Shown: piece by piece, positions 2,418 through 13,025 of the stretch
Layout of the letters: each line of letters starts with the position of its first letter
Position numbering within the stretch: position 1 is the first letter of the stretch
Assembly: GCA_963843555.1 (NCBI GenBank)
Contig: CAWJKV010000002.1
Span: 32,001 to 96,000 of the forward strand
Source of the DNA: an uncultured Methanosarcinales archaeon
GTDB taxonomy: Archaea; Halobacteriota; Methanosarcinia; Methanotrichales; Methanotrichaceae
Direction of reading: 5' to 3'
DNA: 64,000 nt
Program-made: the position numbers and the translations under genes
Notes under the pieces: generated by a model
What the model was told of the DNA's origin: nothing
The model's database searches: none
What the model saw: only the letters and a program-made list of their open reading frames with translations

Positions 2418-3230
2418 TTAGTAAGGGGCGTTTAGCCACTGGTACGTGCCGTAGGCCCAGGCAATGGCATTGGCACTTTCATTGTCCCCACTACTATAGT
2501 AGTAAGCGTTGTTGAACGCTTTCTGATACTCTTTCATTGCGTCTGCATTATCCAGTCCGGCTTGAGGACCAGTGCTGACGCGAGGAACGTAATTCCCAGG
2601 ATAGACTCCCAAATAGTCGACGGGATTGTTGGTCGGAGGAAGGTAGTAACCGCCAGTTGTAGTGGTGCCTGATACATCGATTGTCACACTATTGCTTGGG
2701 GCACCATTTACCATAAAGGCCACTGTGTGCCGTCCAGGAGCATCTGCATAGAAGGCGAGTTTGCTGGTGGGGTAAATGAAGTACTGGTACTCAACTTTCT
2801 GACCACTTGCATCGTTCAGTACAAAGCTGCCTGTGCCCTCGCTGGGAGTGATTGCTAATAGCGGTACCAAAGCTCCCTGGGGAACCTGGGCGTACTGCGA
2901 CCAGTCTCTTGTTCCCTGTATCCACAGAGCATTGCCTGAAGCAGCCTGTTGATATGTAGAGTAAGGAACTTGCTGCATCTGGGTGCCGAAGTAGACGTAT
3001 GTTGGTGCGCTCGTGATATTATATGCCACGGGAGGTGTAATATGTGCGCTTGGGGCGGATCCTCCAATCGAGCCATAGAATTGAGTGTAATCATAAGTGC
3101 TAGCATCAGCACCTGGCATTGGGCCTGAATAGCCGCTCAAAGCCACTACGTTGGTCTGTGCCTGAACCCCTGACAAACATGCTAATAGAATGAATGCCAC
3201 TAAGGTCGATAACAACCTGTTCATTTTCAT
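2418..3230 (-). CDS. Secreted/surface hypothetical protein (Tyr/Gln/Pro-rich)
   Basis: 270 aa ORF with signal peptide MKMNRLLSTLVAFILLACLSGVQA and a beta-rich core. Confidence 0.75.
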   Translation of the reverse strand: MKMNRLLSTLVAFILLACLSGVQAQTNVVALSGYSGPMPGADASTYDYTQFYGSIGGSAPSAHITPPVAYNITSAPTYVYFGTQMQQVPYSTYQQAASGNALWIQGTRDWSQYAQVPQGALVPLLAITPSEGTGSFVLNDASGQKVEYQYFIYPTSKLAFYADAPGRHTVAFMVNGAPSNSVTIDVSGTTTTGGYYLPPTNNPVDYLGVYPGNYVPRVSTGPQAGLDNADAMKEYQKAFNNAYYYSSGDNESANAIAWAYGTYQWLNAPY

Positions 3231-3958: not shown

Positions 3959-4591
3959 ATGTTGCTGTTGGGCGCGGATGAAGCTGGCAAGGGTCCTGTT
4001 ATCGGCTCCATGTTCGTCGCCGGACTGGTTATCGAGGAGGAGAATCTTTTCGACCTGGCGGCTTATGGTGTCAAGGACTCCAAGCAGCTCGCCCCGGCGA
4101 AGAGGGAGATACTGGCCAAGAAGATAAACAGGATTGCCACTGATCAATACATCCTGGAAGTCAAAGCAGAGGTCATCGACGAGCTGCGCCTTGTCATGAC
4201 TATGAACGACATCATGGTAAGGAGCTTCTCCCAGGTGGTAGGAAAGCTGCATGCCGATAGAGCCGTTCTTGATGCCGCGGACGTAGATGCTGCCCGATTT
4301 GCCAGAGCCGTCCAAACCTTGAGCAAGACCACTATGGATCTGATTGCAGAGCACAAAGCAGACGAGCGCCACATGGTCGTCTCAGCCGCCTCAATTCTTG
4401 CCAAAGTTCGACGGGATGCGTCCATACGTGAGCTGGAGTTGGCCCTGCATTGCAGGATCGGCAGCGGATACCCACATGATAGGGATACGATCGCATTCCT
4501 GAGCAACTGGGTAAAGGAAAATCGGGATCTTCCTCCCTGCGCCAGGCACAGCTGGGCAACAGCGCAGCGTATAAAAGCTAGTTTTATATAG
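3959..4591 (+). CDS. rnhB: Ribonuclease HII
   Basis: GADEAGKGPVIG, VKDSKQL, AASILAKV and GSGYP motifs. Confidence 0.96.
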   Translation: MLLLGADEAGKGPVIGSMFVAGLVIEEENLFDLAAYGVKDSKQLAPAKREILAKKINRIATDQYILEVKAEVIDELRLVMTMNDIMVRSFSQVVGKLHADRAVLDAADVDAARFARAVQTLSKTTMDLIAEHKADERHMVVSAASILAKVRRDASIRELELALHCRIGSGYPHDRDTIAFLSNWVKENRDLPPCARHSWATAQRIKASFI

Positions 4592-4631
4592 GCTGCCTGA
4601 AATTAAGAGGCCCCAAGGAAGAAGGGATCAC

Positions 4632-5777
4632 ATGGATATAGAGGATACTTTGCTCATGATTCCAGGGCCGACCAAGGTCGCGCCTCGCGTGCTGCGCGCA
4701 ATGTCAAAGCCCATGATCAGCCACAGAAGCGGCGAGTTTGGAGCAATTTACAGCGAATGCTGCGGATTGCTCAAGCAGTTCTTCGAGACCAGGAATGACG
4801 TAGCGATAATGACTGGCAGCGGTACATTGGGCATGGATGCCGCTGTTGCCAGCACCATCGGCCATGAGGATAGAATCGTTACCATTTCCAACGGCAAGTT
4901 CGGAGAGCGCTTTACTGAGATCGGAGAGAGATATGGTAAGGCCGTTCCTGTGAAGTTCGAGTGGGGCACACCATTCGTCCTGGATAAGATTGCGGCCGCA
5001 TTGGAACAGGGTGCCAAGGCCGTGGCCATGGTCCACAATGAAACCTCCGTCGGCCTCACCAACCCTGCGAAAGAGGTGGGAAAGCTAGCCCGGAAACACG
5101 ACGCGGTATTTATTGTGGATGGCATATCCTCAATAGGCGGCAACGAATTTCTCACCGACGGGTGGAACATCGATATTGCCATCACCGGCTCACAAAAGGC
5201 GCTGGCTGTGCCCCCCGGCCTGGCAGTAGTCTCCGTATCACCAAAAGCGGAAGAGCGCTTCCTGCCCCAGAGCAGCAGCTATTATGCAGATGTGAAGGCC
5301 CACTTAAAGAGCGTCCGGAAGAGCCCGGCGCAGACTCCCTTCACACCTGCGGTGCCACTGTTCTTCGCCATGCAGGAGGCTCTGCGCCTGGCAGCCGAGG
5401 AGGGCTTCGCCGCTCGCAGGACAAGAACGGCAAAGCAGGCGGAGTCGGTTCGATCTGCAGCAAAAGCACTTGGTATAGAGCTATTTCCCACGGTGGACGA
5501 GAATACATATTACTCCAATACAGTAACCGCCATGAAAATGCCCGCGGGCGTCACCGATGACAAGCTGCGCGGCGGCATGAAGAAGCAGGGCGTTATCGTC
5601 TCCGGAGGTCAGGAGGGTCTCAAAGGCAAGATCTTCAGGATCGGCACCATGGGCGTCTGCTCCAGCGGCGACATATTGCGAACCATTCAAACTCTGGAGC
5701 TGGTTCTGGCCAAGGAGGGCCAGCTGCACGCACGCGGCGCAGGAGTTGAAGCCGCGAGCAAGGTGCTGGAGAGCTGA
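4632..5777 (+). CDS. Class V PLP aminotransferase (alanine-glyoxylate/serine-pyruvate type)
   Basis: LLMIPGPT, VHNETSVG, VDGISS, GSQKAL (PLP Lys) and FRIGTMG motifs. Confidence 0.93.
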   Translation: MDIEDTLLMIPGPTKVAPRVLRAMSKPMISHRSGEFGAIYSECCGLLKQFFETRNDVAIMTGSGTLGMDAAVASTIGHEDRIVTISNGKFGERFTEIGERYGKAVPVKFEWGTPFVLDKIAAALEQGAKAVAMVHNETSVGLTNPAKEVGKLARKHDAVFIVDGISSIGGNEFLTDGWNIDIAITGSQKALAVPPGLAVVSVSPKAEERFLPQSSSYYADVKAHLKSVRKSPAQTPFTPAVPLFFAMQEALRLAAEEGFAARRTRTAKQAESVRSAAKALGIELFPTVDENTYYSNTVTAMKMPAGVTDDKLRGGMKKQGVIVSGGQEGLKGKIFRIGTMGVCSSGDILRTIQTLELVLAKEGQLHARGAGVEAASKVLES

Positions 5778-6125
5778 TCCGACTAATAGATTTACACATT
5801 TTTTTATTTAATCTGTTTTGCAAAAAGTAACAACAATTAATGTTGACTTTAATCGATTTTTTAGAATCTAGTCGAATAAATCAAACTGCACGAAACATTT
5901 TTATACTGTAATATCTCTAATAGATTTTAAGGTAATTATTAACAAATGGAATATAATGAAGTGATAGACCGTTGGGGAGTGCCCATCTGCAATAGGCAAA
6001 AGGATTTATAAGTAGGCACCGGTTAGAACATATTCGTGATTTCATGGGGGTTGAGTCAGTTGGAGGGAATGAAAGCTGAAATAGGCGGTGACGGATTAGA
6101 TCTGTGTTCTTTGCCACTTAAGAAG

Positions 6126-9100
6126 ATGGGCAAAGGGAAACACTGTTTCACGCTATTGCTTATTATTATTTAAGCATAACTTCTGCTTTGTTTCTGGCCC
6201 CGGGATGCACGGCAGAGATCGACTTTGATGTAAGAAATGCAACTGTAACTCCTGACTATGGATACGAGGACTTTGCCTATTCAGCCCAGATATGGCTGAG
6301 CGATTCTTCGGCCAGCAGAGTAGGTGAGCTCGCAGTAACTAAATTCAGGGTAGATTTATATATCTACGATAAAGATAATCTGATTTACAGAGAGCCTTCT
6401 TCTGATGTAGTTCTCAGCCAACAGGATATTCAGAGCAGAATCAGCCGTCCTCTTGTCTTCGGTCCATACAGATTAACGGACAAGTTAGGAATAACCAGCA
6501 CCAGCAATGCCTCTTATGAATTTGTTCTCTATCGATCTGGAGAAGAAGTCGCGAGGTCCGCCAGATTGTCAGGTCCCGTTCTCCAGCCACCGACAATAAC
6601 CGGCCTGCCTCAATTCGATGAGACTCCCTATTTCTTCCAGGGCATCTCAGCGACCGCCGGGTTCAGGGATCAGGACGACATTTTGGCCACCTGTCATCTG
6701 GAAATTGCAGGCCCTCTGGGAACAAATGAATCCAGGAACTGGAAGACTGGAGAGGTTCCGTGCAAGCACGCGGGTAAGAACGTTTATACCTGCACTCTAT
6801 TCCAGGATCTCTCATCTTACAGGGAGGGCGGAAACTTCAGCTTCAACATCGTCTATAACAATCTCAAGCTTGACCCCTTGTTCTTCGGGCCCTACAATAT
6901 CTCCCTTCAGCCCTACAGTCCCCTCGTAGAAAGACTTACGGTTCCCCAGCTCCTTGATTCGTCCAACTTCACAATTCTTGCCTACGTCAGAGATGAGGGG
7001 GTTAAGATGGTGGGGGGCCTCCCGATAGGTAGTACTGCCAATCTAATAATAAGCCGTCCCCCCAGCGGAATTGTCATTTACAACTCATCTGAGCCGACTA
7101 TCCAGGGCCCCTATCTTGTCTATGTTTGGAATAAAGACCAAATATCGTTCAGCAGGGACGATGTGCTGCAGAGCAGAGTTGTCCCATTCCAGGCCAGAAT
7201 CGAATATAAGAATGAAAACTGGAATTACGGTGCCAATGCATCCAGCATTGACTTTAGAGTGGTAGAGGAGATTCCAGAACTGGATCTACAGTATCCGTCT
7301 TTCGCTTATGTTCGGTCCGGTGAGACCACCACTATTGACATAACTGCTGTGGTTGCATTCTCCAAAGGGCCCGGCAATATGAATTTCAGGCTTTCCGGTC
7401 CCGCTGAGAATCTCAATTTTACCGACAAAGGAACCTCTCTGGGAGGAAACAGGTACCAATACAAATGGCAGATTAACTTCGATAAACGTCACATCGATGG
7501 CAATTATACGCTCTCCATGTCCTTTGTCCATCCTTCGCTTTCCGGCGGCAAATTTGCCTTTGATGACCGGTCCATAAAGGTGGCCCCGGTTTTTGTGCAG
7601 TTCGATAGGGCCAGCGTCTCGCCATTCTTCGGCCAGTGGAATGATAGCTACACCTATTCTTTGAAGATCAATACAAGCATTCCCCTCGATGTCCATCTCC
7701 AGACCTATGATCACTGCAGCAATGAATGGACTGAAAAGGGAGTCGAGAATGCATCAGAGACCGGATCAGGGCTTAATTGGACCCTCAAGCCCTTTGATTA
7801 TGAGTGTTCTGAGATGGAAAAGCAAGGGGCAAAGTACAGGTTCAAGGCGACATTTTCCGGGCAAGACTACCTCTCGAAGGCCTATGACGGCCCATCTTTC
7901 TCAGCAGGCAATCCCATTCTCATCTCCCTGGATAGTGATCCTGTTGTATATGTCCATGACGGCAACCGATCTTCCAGTAGCGTTCAGGCAGTAGTAGAGT
8001 ATACCATCGGCCAGGGAGAAGCCGTTCTCAGGCTCAAAGGACCGGAGAAGAATATTGAGCAATCACAGGAGGGAGTTGCATTGGGCGGCAATAGATATCG
8101 ATATGATTGGAGCCTGCCCTTTGATGAATTGAATACTGGAAAAAATTTTACGTTAAATCTCAGCTACAAGCACCCCAGCCTGCCAGCAGAGTACCAGCTT
8201 GGTGAAAGAGAGATCTCCGTCCAGCCTTTATCAATTGCCTATGGAGATTCAAAGGTTGTGCCTGATAAAGGCAGATGGAATGATACCTATGCCTACTCAG
8301 TACCCGTGAACTCAAGCGTTGAAATGGAAGTCAAGCTGGAGGTCTATAACGTCTGCGGCCATGAATGGGCACAGATTGCTGCACGGAATAATTCCAGCCG
8401 GGCAGAGCATCATTAACCTGACGGCCAGGCCGTTCAATAAAATGTGCGAAGATTTGCAGGGAAAGAATGCGAGCTACCGCTTTGTCGCCAGCTTTGCAGG
8501 GGATACCTTCCCATCCGATACGTATGCGGGACCTTTAATCGATTACTTCATGCGGGTCCGGCAGGAAAATGGCGCGAACACTACGATGATGCCTGAAGAA
8601 GTGAGGGGCGACGTGAGCCCAAGAAGAGGTATCCTGCAGGCCTGGCAGGAGAGCGATAAGCTGTATGCATTCACCTATACCGCTCAACTCAAAAATTTGA
8701 GCTCAGGGCAATTCGCCCTGGGTAGAGCTATTGGTTAAGGCTCCCGGTCGTTCCTGGAAGGCTGTGGGCGAAAAGCAGCAGTACGATCCCAATCAGGGCA
8801 ATTTAAGCTGGACCGTCAAGCCGTTCTTCGATACAGAGTTCCTGGGAACAGCCCAGTTCAAGTTCCTGATCGATGGGAGGGAGAGCAATGTGTTTGAAGG
8901 ACCTGAGATCATCGCCGTCTATAAAGATTTGAGTTATCAGAAATCAGCTATTGTTGGATTGTATAACTATCAAGGTACGATCAACGCGTCCATCAACTTA
9001 ACTCTCGATCTATTGGGTTCGGAAGATAACGAACACTGGAGGAATATCGGCAAGATTCAGAAGTATACATTCGGAAGCGGTGAAGTGCTAAAAACCTGGA

Positions 9101-9168
9101 AAGATGAGCCCGCGATACGATATTATGAGTTTGATATCAAACCGGCAGCCGGCAAGGTGATGAGCTGA
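6126..9168 (+). CDS. Large exported repeat protein (~1010 aa when joined), split by frameshifts at ~6170, ~8387 and ~8712
   Basis: ATG 6126 plus one T gives a signal peptide (MGKGKHCFTLLLIIILSITSALFLAPGCTA) that joins ORF 6188-8416. ORFs 8319-8738 and 8731-9168 continue the same beta-rich repeat style. Confidence 0.75.
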
Positions 9169-10600
9169 TGCGTCAAAAGGAAATTTGGTTAATTGTCATA
9201 GCTCTTTTGATTCTCTCTATAGCTTTCCAGCGATCGCTCCGGCGGGTCCGCAGCCTTCGTCCGACAGTGGCAACAGTGGTGGCGGTGGTAGTGGGGGTGG
9301 ATCTCGCCTCAGCCTGGCGAGTTTTACCAATTACCTGGAGAGCTGGCAAAAGGAAAATCCAACGAAGTATCAGTACATGACAAAGCTCATGAGCAATGGA
9401 AACACCCGAGCATACAAGGTACCATCCATTGGATTAAAATATTCTAAGAATAGATCAGTTAACAGGAACGATGAACTGGATATAAAATTCCAGGTCCAGA
9501 ATCCCAATCCTATTGACCTTCGGATACCTCTTTTCATCGATCTTGAGGCGATGCCTCCCGGAGAGAATGGCTATAAGAAGATAAATCAGAACTCAATGAT
9601 TGTTCAGCCATTTTTCTATACGGAAAATAATGACGTCAATTTCTTCGAATCAAGCTGGCCGGAATTGAGTACCTTCGGCCAGATGAACAGAATGGGTATT
9701 CTAAAACTCAAGACCGGAGAGGTGAAGCTCCGTGCCGTTTACAATGATGGAACCCGGAAAGAATATTCCGACTCCTGGAAATTTTATCCACCTTACTATG
9801 GCGAGCTTGTTCTTAATCTGACCAACCGCCCTCCTGAGATGAAGAATATCTCCATCACGCCACCAAGTACTATGAGGTTCAATGACCCCATAGAGTACAA
9901 GGCGGAGATCGAGGATTCTGACGGAGACATGCTCAATGTGACTCTCCATATCTTCGACACAAAGGGCAAAGAGCTGAAGAATGTTACCCAGATGGTGTTG
10001 CCGGGATCTATCAGCTTCAAAGCCAGCCAGTTTGGATTCTTCAGCGAGACTGATGCAGGTAAAAATTTTACCTATTACTATAGTTTTGATGATGGAATAA
10101 ACAGCAATAGAACTCGGATTCAATCGGGACCGAATATTCGCCAGGGGCCGAAGCTCTATGTGGATCAGCTCAATGTTACACCTCAAAGCAGTAATTGCTA
10201 TTGGTGGCAGTGGTATACCTTCAGTATGAGAGCGAAGAACTTGAACCAGGAAAATTTCGATGTGGTCTTTACCCTGCTATGCAGGACAGAGAATAGCGAT
10301 TGGAGGACGATAGAAAGCAAAACTGTGAAAGTGGGCCCTGAACCGCAAATGATCTCTTTTAACAAAACCGAACCGTTCCTCGTTACTGATGCCAATGCTA
10401 CCTCTTTTTATCGCATTAAACTCTCTGAGTACGATCAGACCGGCAAAGATGTAGTGGAGGCGGCCGGGCCAAAGATCAATGCCAAGATGGTGCCTTATGC
10501 CATTTACGATCCGGTTATGGTCGCAAACGTTGCATCGCTGCTATTTGTGATCCTGGCGGGAAGCCTGGCTTTAGAGAGAAGTCATAAGAGGAGGGATTAG
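9168..10600 (+). CDS. Exported protein with signal peptide, Gly/Ser linker, Ig-like region and C-terminal TM anchor; frameshift at ~9225
   Basis: MRQKEIWLIVIALLILSIAF joins ORF 9185-10600 with one extra T. Ends in a hydrophobic helix plus basic tail (VMVANVASLLFVILAGSLALERSHKRRD). TGATG coupling with the upstream gene. Confidence 0.78.
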
Positions 10601-10602
10601 AG

Positions 10603-11274
10603 ATGGACCGATTCCCTCTTTTTGCCATCATCCTGGCAGCAATTCCAGTATTGGCAAGCGGGCTGGATCTGGCAGGAAGTGCCCTTCTCCTGGGCATTAT
10701 TCTTGGGGGAGCTGCGGCATTGCATATCTATAACCTGTGGAGGGTTCATAGAAAAATAGAATCGTTAGAACACTCCAGCATAACTAAAGAGAGCTTTTAT
10801 AATGAACTGGCCATTGCCCAGGGCTCAAACTTCTCTGCTCTGGCTCTTGCGGCATGGCTGATGCTCATTGTGGCTATCGCTTATCTCTATTTCCTGGTTC
10901 CGACAATTCTCGCCATCAGCTACATGCAGATTCCAGACCTGGCATCCAGTCCAAACGGTTTTGTCACCTATGGATTGGCCATTGCCTCGGCGGCAACAAT
11001 TTTGATTCTCGGCCTTGACAAGCTGCCTGAGAGCTATAGGGAGTTCAAGCTGACAGAGCTGTACAGTTTCTACTCCATCTCAAAGGAGGCGAAGAGAACG
11101 ATCGTCCTGACCATTCCCGCCCTCAGTATCTCGATAATTTGCTCGGCTTATACCGGCACCATCTATCCCGCGCATGATCCACTTGCTGAGAGCCTGTCTT
11201 TAATCCTCCTGGCACTCTCGGCAGGAACGCTGGTGGCTATCATTTATAAGGACGCAGTGGAGGGATGGAGATGA
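10603..11274 (+). CDS. Multi-pass membrane protein, unknown function
   Basis: 223 aa with about 5-6 hydrophobic segments. RBS-like GGAGG upstream; ATGA overlap with the next gene. Confidence 0.8.
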   Translation: MDRFPLFAIILAAIPVLASGLDLAGSALLLGIILGGAAALHIYNLWRVHRKIESLEHSSITKESFYNELAIAQGSNFSALALAAWLMLIVAIAYLYFLVPTILAISYMQIPDLASSPNGFVTYGLAIASAATILILGLDKLPESYREFKLTELYSFYSISKEAKRTIVLTIPALSISIICSAYTGTIYPAHDPLAESLSLILLALSAGTLVAIIYKDAVEGWR

Positions 11275-13025
11275 AATTGTGTGTAGTTGGCATCGGCGGA
11301 GCTGGCGGCAATGTCACCCGCGAGTTCATAGGAAATGTTGATCTTGATTTTAATCTGATTTCCAGCATAACCAAAGCCGAATATATATCCCCAGGCATGA
11401 TGAAAGGAATATGGCTTGACGCTGACAAGAATGATGCCCGTAACCTTCAGCATTTCTTTGGAGATATCAACGATGGAGCATATCCGGCTTTCTTCATCCC
11501 ACATGACGCTATTGAAGATGCGTCAGATATTCATATTTTTGTGAAAGAGAAGTACGGCTACGATGTAAAGAAGCAGGGTTTCGTGAGAGACGCCCAGTAC
11601 ATAAAAGCCATCTTTGAGATCTTCGATAGTGATTGCGAGATACAGGAGTTGGCAGCGAGAGAATTCGATTTGCTGGATTCAAGAGACAGGAATGGCAACT
11701 CGGAAGAGATGGAGAAAATTGGTCTCAAAGAGGATCCGAATAACGGTAACGGCAATGGTAATGGCAATGGTGTCGGCAATAGTAACTGCAATTCTTTCAA
11801 GAAACAGGCACCCAATCCCATCTTCGATTGCGCCTGGAAAACGATCAAGCCTTACACTACATTAGGTGGCGGCAACTGCGATGGCATTCTCTTCATCGTA
11901 TCTTTTGGTGGCGGCACAGGAACTGGATTTATAAACCCCATCATCAGCCACATCCGAAATGAAGGTAATGCAGACTATCCTGTATTCGTCCTGGGAATTC
12001 TAACTGAGTTTGGCGACTTTGCTGATCGGGCTCAGTTTTCTGAGGAAGGGCGCAGGAATCTGGCGGCAACAAGCGCTCTTTACGACCTGCTCACAGAAAG
12101 TAATGGAGCCAATGGAGTCATCCTGATTGACAATCAGATTCTGGTAGATAAGTTTGGGAAAGATTATGCGGCTATGAACAAGTTCATCTACCAGATGATG
12201 ATGCCAATGGTTTTGGGGCGCGACTACCCTGGAGAGACCCCACCGAGCCAGGCTGTTGCTCATAATTTCACTAAGGGCCTTTCCAGGCCGCCTCTATTCG
12301 TACCGCTTTTCTCGACCATTTCCCGGTGCAAGAATCCAGAAGAGGAGCTGGTCAGAAGAGCTCTTGCGACGGGGAGGCTCTTCGGCTGCACGCCTGAGAA
12401 GGCCGATATTGCGGTGGTCTTTTGCCGGGGGTTTGTCGATTCAGAGAAGATCAGGAAGGCTTTATCCAAGCAGACCGGAATAAGTGAAGGGAAGATTTGG
12501 GTACTGCGAAAGATGGGTGAAGAGAACGATGAGATCCTGATTATGCTCAGGAATCCTTATGGTGACGATCCCCGGGCTTACACCCGCGAGGGAACTCTGG
12601 AGAACAGGTTTTGCAGGGTGATCTCCATGGCTCTCCAGTACATGAATCAAAATGCAGAGGACCTCTTATGTGAGGGCAAGGATAGCCGGAAAAGAAGCAA
12701 AGATGGTTCGGATGAATCAATAAAGCTCACGGAAAAAGCAAAGCATGCTCTGGAAAAGTTCTTCTTTGGGGAACAGGGATTTATAAGAGACAATTTCGGC
12801 AAAGAGGCGGGTTTTGCCTACGAGCTACGGGAGGCCAGAAGGAGGCTGAGGGATGGAGAGAAGCCCTTTTTCATTTATCCCATGAGGATCTATCCAAAAA
12901 GCGATAGGGTTTTGGAAAATAGCGGAAAGAATTACTGCCAGGACGAAGATGAAATCTCCCGGATCGTTGATAAGCGGATTAAAGAGATACTGGCGGAACA
13001 GGGATTGCTGAATATTGGATGCTAA
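11271..13025 (+). CDS. Divergent tubulin/FtsZ-superfamily (CetZ-like) GTPase
   Basis: T1 VVGIGGAGGN, tubulin signature SFGGGTGTG, PVFVLGIL and VILIDNQ. Has long insertions and a C-terminal extension. Confidence 0.88.
   Translation: MKLCVVGIGGAGGNVTREFIGNVDLDFNLISSITKAEYISPGMMKGIWLDADKNDARNLQHFFGDINDGAYPAFFIPHDAIEDASDIHIFVKEKYGYDVKKQGFVRDAQYIKAIFEIFDSDCEIQELAAREFDLLDSRDRNGNSEEMEKIGLKEDPNNGNGNGNGNGVGNSNCNSFKKQAPNPIFDCAWKTIKPYTTLGGGNCDGILFIVSFGGGTGTGFINPIISHIRNEGNADYPVFVLGILTEFGDFADRAQFSEEGRRNLAATSALYDLLTESNGANGVILIDNQILVDKFGKDYAAMNKFIYQMMMPMVLGRDYPGETPPSQAVAHNFTKGLSRPPLFVPLFSTISRCKNPEEELVRRALATGRLFGCTPEKADIAVVFCRGFVDSEKIRKALSKQTGISEGKIWVLRKMGEENDEILIMLRNPYGDDPRAYTREGTLENRFCRVISMALQYMNQNAEDLLCEGKDSRKRSKDGSDESIKLTEKAKHALEKFFFGEQGFIRDNFGKEAGFAYELREARRRLRDGEKPFFIYPMRIYPKSDRVLENSGKNYCQDEDEISRIVDKRIKEILAEQGLLNIGC

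Follow-up and report, generated by a model that had tools for sequence, protein, structure and literature searches.

A conserved and hitherto undescribed four-gene system lies between positions 6126 and 13025 of the window, by which is meant the whole 64,000-nucleotide stretch of contig CAWJKV010000002.1 from an uncultured archaeon of the Methanotrichaceae. Its genes, all read from the forward strand and designated A, B, C and T, specify a secreted repeat protein, a surface protein with a C-terminal anchor, a small integral membrane protein, and a divergent member of the tubulin superfamily. The four products are proposed, at a probability of about one half, to make up one membrane-spanning anchor or receptor complex in which T would be docked as a guanosine triphosphate (GTP)-binding subunit rather than forming a dynamic filament. 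The proposal is built on the fixed order of the genes, the tightness of their junctions, the modelled complex of T with C, the loss of a catalytic acid from the T7 loop of T, the truncation of the last repeat of A and the recurrence of the layout at a distantly related locus (L251). No description of this operon layout was found in the literature covered (subscription journals and preprint supplements fall outside that coverage), and the operon is not described in the available parts of PMC9856176, PMC9871819, PMC2875224, PMC11576556, PMC6242892, PMC10470525 and PMC10598746; what is said below of these seven articles likewise holds for those parts.

Gene A (6126..9168) encodes a secreted protein without an anchor, made of ~100-residue repeats of two types and 1012 amino acids long if read in frame. 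Gene B (9168..10600; 476 amino acids in frame) encodes a signal peptide, a Gly-rich linker, a helical hairpin, three immunoglobulin (Ig)/FnIII-like β-sandwiches and a single C-terminal membrane helix. Gene C (10603..11274) specifies a 223-amino-acid membrane protein, the predicted binder of T through its cytoplasmic loops; it has five conserved helices, in accord with the multi-spanning protein claimed in a preliminary description of this DNA, and one extra N-terminal hydrophobic stretch in this copy. Gene T (11271..13025) specifies a tubulin-superfamily protein of 584 amino acids. It carries the motifs for GTP binding and a T7 loop that is degenerate; toward the C-terminus it has additional helices and, at the end, an amphipathic one. 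The junctions stand as first described: the TGA that ends A (9166-9168) overlaps the ATG that starts B (9168-9170), two nucleotides separate the TAG of B, ending at 10600, from the ATG of C at 10603, and C and T overlap at ATGA (11271-11274). C and T are intact open reading frames (ORFs) of the lengths given above, and the GIGGAGGN and GGGTGTG motifs of T are present as claimed. The sizes of ~1000 and ~480 residues first assigned to A and B fit the in-frame reading, but this assembly has neither as an open frame, three frameshifts interrupting A and one interrupting B.

The four genes travel together. A scan of named genomes with a single T sequence returned nothing; a scan with an alignment of T confirmed 93 stretches, from which 79 loci were kept, 75 of them named as Methanotrichaceae genera or Methanosarcinales (the other four are L183, L188, L207 and L217). 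C lies upstream of T in all 73 loci with enough upstream DNA, B lies upstream in 66 of 66 testable loci, and the full order A-B-C-T holds in 65 of these 66; at the sole exception, L191, the upstream DNA contains an assembly gap and an integrase gene. Among 20 loci around T orthologues, 19 read A-B-C-T and one reads B-C-T up to the end of its contig, and at least eight of nine loci from other genera or families have all four genes. Failure of the four to co-occur in other genomes was the first ground on which the preliminary description would have been abandoned; they co-occur in fixed order. C is present in 87 of 105 Methanotrichaceae genomes (59 of the 64 of high quality) and in 15 of 16 genera. 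Across 300 genomes of the phylum, T and C match in all eight members of the family and in one genome of another family (G095), where the match sits on a 14.8-kilobase (kb) contig and reflects transfer or misbinning; T is found in none of 37 genomes of the class's other sampled family (0/37), and the named homologues of the operon proteins are Methanothrix or Methanotrichaceae proteins. The range of the cassette is the Methanotrichaceae, not the Methanosarcinales at large.

Within the family the cassette mostly occupies one chromosomal site: at 47 of 79 loci the flank retrieved includes an aminotransferase gene. No T was detected in G005, G009, G022, G031 or G032, and the only B found in these genomes lies at the edge of a G032 contig. 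Incomplete assembly is slight in three of these (G005 is 99% complete in 2 contigs, G031 98% and G022 95%), and in all five genomes examined at the site (G005, G009, G021, G022 and G031) unrelated genes follow the upstream aminotransferase. These five form one clade (support 100/99), and a single loss in one subclade fits best. Sheath proteins have been reported in all Methanotrichales (PMC11576556), yet one subclade lacks the cassette; it is therefore probably not needed for a sheath. The core role in a sheath or plug suggested at the outset is weakened by this subclade, since its genomes are near-complete.

The extracellular pair is built from common parts. A ~100-residue repeat shared by A and B yields 104 domain hits in 30 sequences and none in shuffled copies; domains 2 and 3 of B match the type-1 repeat of A, A has a second repeat type as well, and neither repeat occurs elsewhere in this genome. 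The domains of B model as seven-stranded Ig-like sandwiches (the model, of the 94% identical homologue P0328, has a predicted local distance difference test score (pLDDT) of 84.8 and a predicted template-modelling score (pTM) of 0.54), and the sandwiches give generic Ig/FnIII matches, the best at Z 10.6, among which no specific family stands out. A has no Pfam or NCBIfam match, and an atlas search with a short A gave a best score of 0.77, which is uninformative. The three ORFs of A carry 28 N-glycosylation sequons, and its homologues range from 537 to 1462 residues. Whatever its length, A ends in the same way, 76-97 residues past the last complete repeat in 66 of 66 loci. Inner repeats of A reach profile position 98-100 in 224 of 229 cases, whereas the last repeat (detected in 55 of the 66 loci) stops at position 71-91 of 100, its final ~12-25 residues missing. 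The final Ig domain thus seems to be one strand short, and a partner may complete it, B being the simplest candidate.

T has a complete two-domain tubulin fold (model pTM 0.77). Its best structural matches are CetZ2 (4b45; Z 27.4, root-mean-square deviation 2.9 over 314 aligned residues) and the Methanosaeta CetZ (3zid; Z 25.8, deviation 3.7 over 317), followed by BtubA (Z 25.3), tubulin (24.8) and FtsZ (2vaw; 24.6); identity to these is 14-20%. The top 16 matches are all of the tubulin family, at Z 19-27, and unrelated folds stay below 8. The model aligns to tubulins as far as residue 532, past the range shared with FtsZ (429). By sequence the relationship is faint. T scores 34 bits against Pfam Tubulin (cut-off 33), 18.7 against the ftsZ equivalog TIGR00065 (cut-off 295.2) and 12.8 against Tubulin_2 (PF13809; cut-off 27; best E 2.7e-4 among 56 members); CetZ_C (PF21011) matches none of 56 T sequences at E 0.1, with a model that also misses the CetZ of this genome and is insensitive here. 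A sequence search of solved structures with T found nothing significant, and the nearest clusters in an atlas search are tubulin/CetZ-like. Homologues of T are 510-760 residues long. The T1 motif is complete in 129 of 133 sequences and partial in the other four, T4 (GGGTG[ST]G) is present in 133 of 133, two of them with GGR, and the T6 Asp and the N/D of H7 are kept in every one of the 133. T is thus predicted, from its motifs, to bind GTP.

What T lacks is the catalytic acid of the T7 loop. At position 328, which aligns with it, all 133 sequences have A, S, G or V, and DxxD/E followed by a hydrophobic residue occurs in none of 131. The majority show RDYPxExPPSQA in this loop, which together with the start of helix H8 spans residues 316-334 (12216..12272). 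The same genome also encodes three canonical paralogues, labelled FtsZ1, FtsZ2 and CetZ from motifs and tree position, with intact DxxD loops, which read NxDxxD in FtsZ1 and FtsZ2; in the alignment DxxE/DxxD is found in 23 of 23 CetZ-side rows and in 0 of 13 T rows. The tree (42 of 64 prepared rows, made by a quick method with no mixture model, and with no tubulin, TubZ or FtsZl1 rows) places T in a clade of its own (100 in the Shimodaira-Hasegawa-like approximate likelihood-ratio test, SH-aLRT; stem of 2.25 changes per site). A branch with SH-aLRT 100 separates it from FtsZ, and it falls on the CetZ side of that split, where it forms a three-way polytomy with two CetZ groups. Placement of the GTPase inside an ordinary FtsZ or CetZ clade with randomly varying neighbors, the other outcome that would have told against the preliminary description, was not observed: T lies outside the FtsZ1 and FtsZ2 clades and, as far as the polytomy allows, outside the sampled CetZ clades.

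C gave no family match over cut-off in Pfam or NCBIfam, and no solved relative was found; passing on a remembered structure is accordingly an unlikely source of the score that the T-C complex obtains. That score is 0.70, against 0.00 for the best of three controls; the mark used is reached by 116 of 157 solved complexes and by 2 of 215 mismatched pairs, counts that are only rough with these alignments. The runs agree in at least 96% of contacts, with the pLDDT of C at least 81. On T the modelled interface comprises residues 23-43, 316-323, 388-391 and 413-418, that is, the H1-S2 insertion, the T7 loop and the S8-H10/S9-S10 loops; on C it comprises residues 48-80, 158-168 and 220-223. The three segments of C are its Lys/Arg-rich loops (mean K+R 5.8, 5.8 and 2.3, versus 0.5 and 0.4 in the others), which by the positive-inside rule makes them cytoplasmic. 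They are also better conserved than C as a whole (0.675 versus 0.573; 0.9% of random sets score as high). The conserved amphipathic helix near the C-terminus of T (residues 559-576, 12945..12998; hydrophobic moment 0.45, net charge -2), which follows a low-confidence linker, lies outside the predicted interface. The model supports binding of T to C. In FtsZ and tubulin, the face inserted into the nucleotide pocket of the next subunit includes T7 and the start of H10; the surface of T predicted to be covered by C presumably overlaps the one that those proteins use to activate their neighbor. The T7 loop that has lost its catalytic acid is therefore predicted, on the strength of the model, to be the docking site for C.

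The layout recurs, at greater distance, outside this set of orthologues. When 1.84 billion representatives were searched with a profile, 122 matches came up, among them a distant tier joined to T in the tree with an SH-aLRT of 99; an alignment of that tier, in a metagenome scan that covered 35 of 64 parts, recovered six loci: two ordinary FtsZ, two too short, and two informative (L250 and L251). L251 (563-8603) reads, in order, an A-like gene (1085 residues, with a truncated last repeat), a B-like gene (1100 residues, with an internal Gly linker and a C-terminal anchor), a four-helix membrane protein and a T-like gene. L250 (3-11972) has B-like, small membrane protein and T-like genes as in L251, with an A-like gene further on, and additionally a SpaA/vWA-like surface gene. 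The T-like proteins of these loci reach 1115 residues and contain inserted repeats. As to their host, 0 of 79 genomes of one class matched, in a search that lacked a positive control; 400 genomes of the phylum searched with the distant alignment yielded only T orthologues and three short repeat matches. Separate searches gave no significant match in plasmids and phages, and none in viral contigs.

The following picture of the complex is proposed. On the outside, A and B would together build a glycosylated stalk of Ig-like domains; A, having no anchor, would depend on B for attachment, perhaps by way of the incomplete last repeat of A, and the length of the stalk would be set by the number of repeats (with 5 to 13 domains, some 20-50 nm in an extended state). 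The connection across the membrane would be made by C, its cytoplasmic loops gripping T. The stalk may touch the sheath, the cell end or a neighbor, and the free nucleotide face of T may pass position or contact on to a cytoplasmic partner that supplies the missing catalytic residue. The A-B and B-C contacts are inferred from gene order and anatomy. A more specific version, held tentatively, is an adhesion-type junction with a T7 docking loop and a tunable Ig stalk, T acting as a fixed nucleator or as a GTP switch that reports contact with sheath, plug or neighbor. Several observations weigh against the docked complex. The T side of the interface is conserved at 0.684 versus 0.638 overall, and 18% of random sets score as high, which is not significant. 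A conserved acid is left in the T7 loop (E322 in 122 of 133 sequences, D in 4) and could serve non-canonical catalysis; the register of the loop depends on an alignment across families in which one branch is long; and the distant relatives P0397 and P0403 keep DxxD/E. The small membrane protein of L251, finally, is not detectably related to C (probability 2.7%).

The preliminary description saw in these genes a cytoskeletal filament linked through the membrane to an extracellular structure. The link has gained support from the predicted interface on the cytoplasmic loops of C; modelling the GTPase with the membrane protein, one of the checks proposed, gave the 0.70 already quoted. The filament is doubtful, because T is without the T7 acid of polymer-coupled hydrolysis and the same loop is the predicted dock for C. 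That T polymerises into a stable filament or ring, tied to the membrane by C and organising a spacer plug, the sheath or an A/B appendage, is accordingly considered unlikely. It is not without attractions: T has the complete fold, with the T1, T3, T4, T5 and T6 surfaces conserved; the cassette is near-core in a sheathed, filament-forming family whose plug proteins are unknown (PMC11576556); and lack of hydrolysis could yield a static polymer whose subunits the terminal amphipathic helix might cross-link. Against this stand the predicted occupation of T7 by C, the empty site in G005, G031 and G022 in an order reported to have sheath proteins throughout, and the span of A lengths, which is more in keeping with a spacer than with a subunit of a lattice.

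That variability of A speaks for a different idea, that A and B detect virus, partner cell or sheath damage and that C transmits the signal to T, acting as a GTP switch or as a guarded target. It draws on a group of fusion proteins. In P0361, P0373, P0410 and P0412, NB-ARC and APAF1-type winged-helix/helical domains are joined, at the same junction, to a C-terminal T-family domain, which occupies the usual sensor position of NLR proteins; the N-terminal effector domains differ (CHAT, DUF4062 and trypsin-like in P0361, P0373 and P0412), P0410 showing none, and the fused T-family domains derive from at least two T subclades. P0097 joins a KAP-family NTPase, with QatA/PifA-like PADLOC matches, to a full T, in a cluster of 4 members. 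However, none of A, B, C and T has a PADLOC match, and a near-core cassette found mostly at one chromosomal site (47/79) is unlike a patchy defence island, so that surface sensing or immunity is judged distinctly unlikely.

Very unlikely is a nucleator or cap, in which C-bound T would template CetZ or FtsZ, much as γ-tubulin does for microtubules, and A and B would select the places on the membrane where filament ends are fixed. The genome has FtsZ1, FtsZ2 and CetZ as possible clients, the minus-end-type surface of T is the one predicted to be bound by C while its nucleotide face is conserved, and the model of T follows tubulins beyond the range shared with FtsZ. But G005, without the cassette, keeps all three canonical proteins, G154 has T with only two of them found, and T is no more than 14-20% identical to FtsZ and CetZ structures. 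Finally, T might be no more than a CetZ paralogue that has diverged, with surface genes unrelated to it nearby, or the locus might be in decay. The top rank of CetZ2 among structural matches and the four frameshifts of this copy could suggest as much, but the gene order kept in 65 of 66 loci, the intact state of the genes in most relatives, the want of a match in 56 T sequences to CetZ_C (a model insensitive in this lineage) and a stem branch of 2.25 make it barely credible: fixed order refutes the unrelated-neighbor reading of the linkage, and only the intactness of this strain's copy is left in question.

CetZ2 of Haloferax volcanii and the CetZ of Methanosaeta thermophila are the known proteins that resemble T most in structure, but T is 16-20% identical to them, gives no match to the insensitive CetZ_C model, has no T7 DxxD/E, is 510-760 residues long, sits in a fixed operon and has a separate CetZ beside it in the genome. 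Methanosarcinales genomes have one clear CetZ each, near nicotinamide adenine dinucleotide-synthesis genes (PMC9856176); Table S1 of that article holds one unanalysed 'non-canonical TSF' in M. thermoacetophila PT, which may or may not correspond to T, and none in M. soehngenii GP6 or M. harundinacea, and two of the nine ftsZ places in the supplement of PMC10470525 do not identify T. FtsZ1 and FtsZ2 with SepF or FtsA share with T the tubulin fold, GGGTGTG and attachment to the membrane through a partner, but T is without NxDxxD, and C is an integral membrane protein predicted at the T7 face. Known FtsZ membrane anchors bind the FtsZ tail. The vWA operons of FtsZl1 (Tubulin_2) also place a divergent tubulin-like gene in a predicted membrane-associated operon; FtsZl1, however, has no recognisable T6-H7 or canonical C-terminal domain and contains a long coiled coil (Makarova and Koonin 2010, PMC2875224), whereas T has T6, H7 and the canonical C-terminal domain. 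A vWA-type gene lies within 10 kb in 14 of 79 loci, in several on the other strand or further away, and is not a core partner; none was found in this genome with that profile. γ-Tubulin in the γ-TuSC offers a functional analogy, a tubulin held on its minus-end side by a dedicated partner with the nucleotide face free, but T is 13% and 11% identical to two γ-tubulin structures, its partner is a membrane protein, and templating by it is only hypothetical. On the outside of the cell, A resembles SH of Methanothrix and MspA of Methanospirillum in being a secreted, β-rich protein of sheathed methanogens, and some SH have Ig-like extensions (PMC11576556, PMC6242892); by their descriptions SH lacks a conserved context and MspA has few homologues, whereas A occurs in nearly all Methanotrichaceae in a fixed operon. 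A short A, at 61.3 kDa, is close to MspA in mass, but MspA is reported to be without homologues, and identity of the two was rejected as unlikely.

The state of A and B in this assembly requires comment. A is represented by a signal-peptide fragment from 6126 and by ORFs at 6188-8416, 8319-8738 and 8731-9168; in B a frameshift near 9221 cuts the signal peptide off from the rest. Contigs of close relatives, from four wetland or soil runs and mostly 90-99% alike, lack the extra bases at 6162/6168 (1 of 4 runs), 8384 (4 of 4), 8709 (1 of 4) and 9221 (2 of 4), P0328 is intact, with 476 residues and a signal peptide, and of 70 loci tested in the source genome (G000), 11 contain frameshifts (14 in 29,408 amino acids). 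The breaks are for these reasons likely to be sequencing errors carried into the assembly, and gene calls from G000 need care generally. Decay of A and B in this strain is possible, because the local rate of breakage exceeds the genome background: four breaks in ~1,490 codons of A and B, against about 0.7 expected.

Outside the system, RNase HII and aminotransferase genes, named from motifs (3959..5777, forward strand), form its usual upstream flank and mark the empty site in cassette-less genomes. A candidate operon promoter, seen by eye, is the TATA-box-like TTTATAAG (6005..6012, forward strand), ~115 nucleotides upstream of gene A and with a purine-rich element ahead; a scan for sigma-70 promoters has no bearing on TTTATAAG, archaeal promoters being outside its coverage. 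On the reverse strand, 65-467 of the window holds a nucleotidyltransferase gene followed by an apparently broken HEPN/DUF86 gene, by their motifs a probable MNT-HepT toxin-antitoxin pair, and 2418-3230 encodes an exported 270-residue protein with no family match, ~50% identical to one at the same site in cassette-less genomes. Genes for an exported thioredoxin-like protein and a redoxin-DsbD protein follow the cassette in 26 of 66 loci (e.g., L032:14620-16610); this genome carries its three copies of the Dsb-type pair unlinked (C2, C6 and C14), so they are not core. Dsb genes have been noted in sheathed archaea (PMC11576556). In G095 an exported GH25 (lysozyme-type) protein with a C-terminal anchor is encoded directly upstream of the cassette (L064:10241-11869), and at L228:5543-8878 one A-B-C set is followed by two T genes in tandem. 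T is also carried by two named enrichment strains. Strain Mx has two copies of the cassette, with short and long A (L196, L219), and Ca. Methanocrinis alkalitolerans M04Ac (L189), which has long pili without a known genetic basis (PMC10598746), also carries it.

The prokaryotic tubulins known so far function as filaments and are attached through their tails. If true, the arrangement proposed here, in which an integral membrane protein holds a tubulin at its T7 loop and connects it to a surface stalk, would be a new use of the fold; NLR-like ATPases would moreover have acquired the same domain repeatedly, in the place where their sensor usually sits. For the organisms themselves the cassette matters because most species of a major methanogen family that lives on acetate have it, and in that family plug proteins, sheath assembly factors and long appendages are without known genes (PMC11576556; PMC10598746). 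It offers four named candidates, an interface predicted at the level of residues, and a clade with natural loss for comparison.

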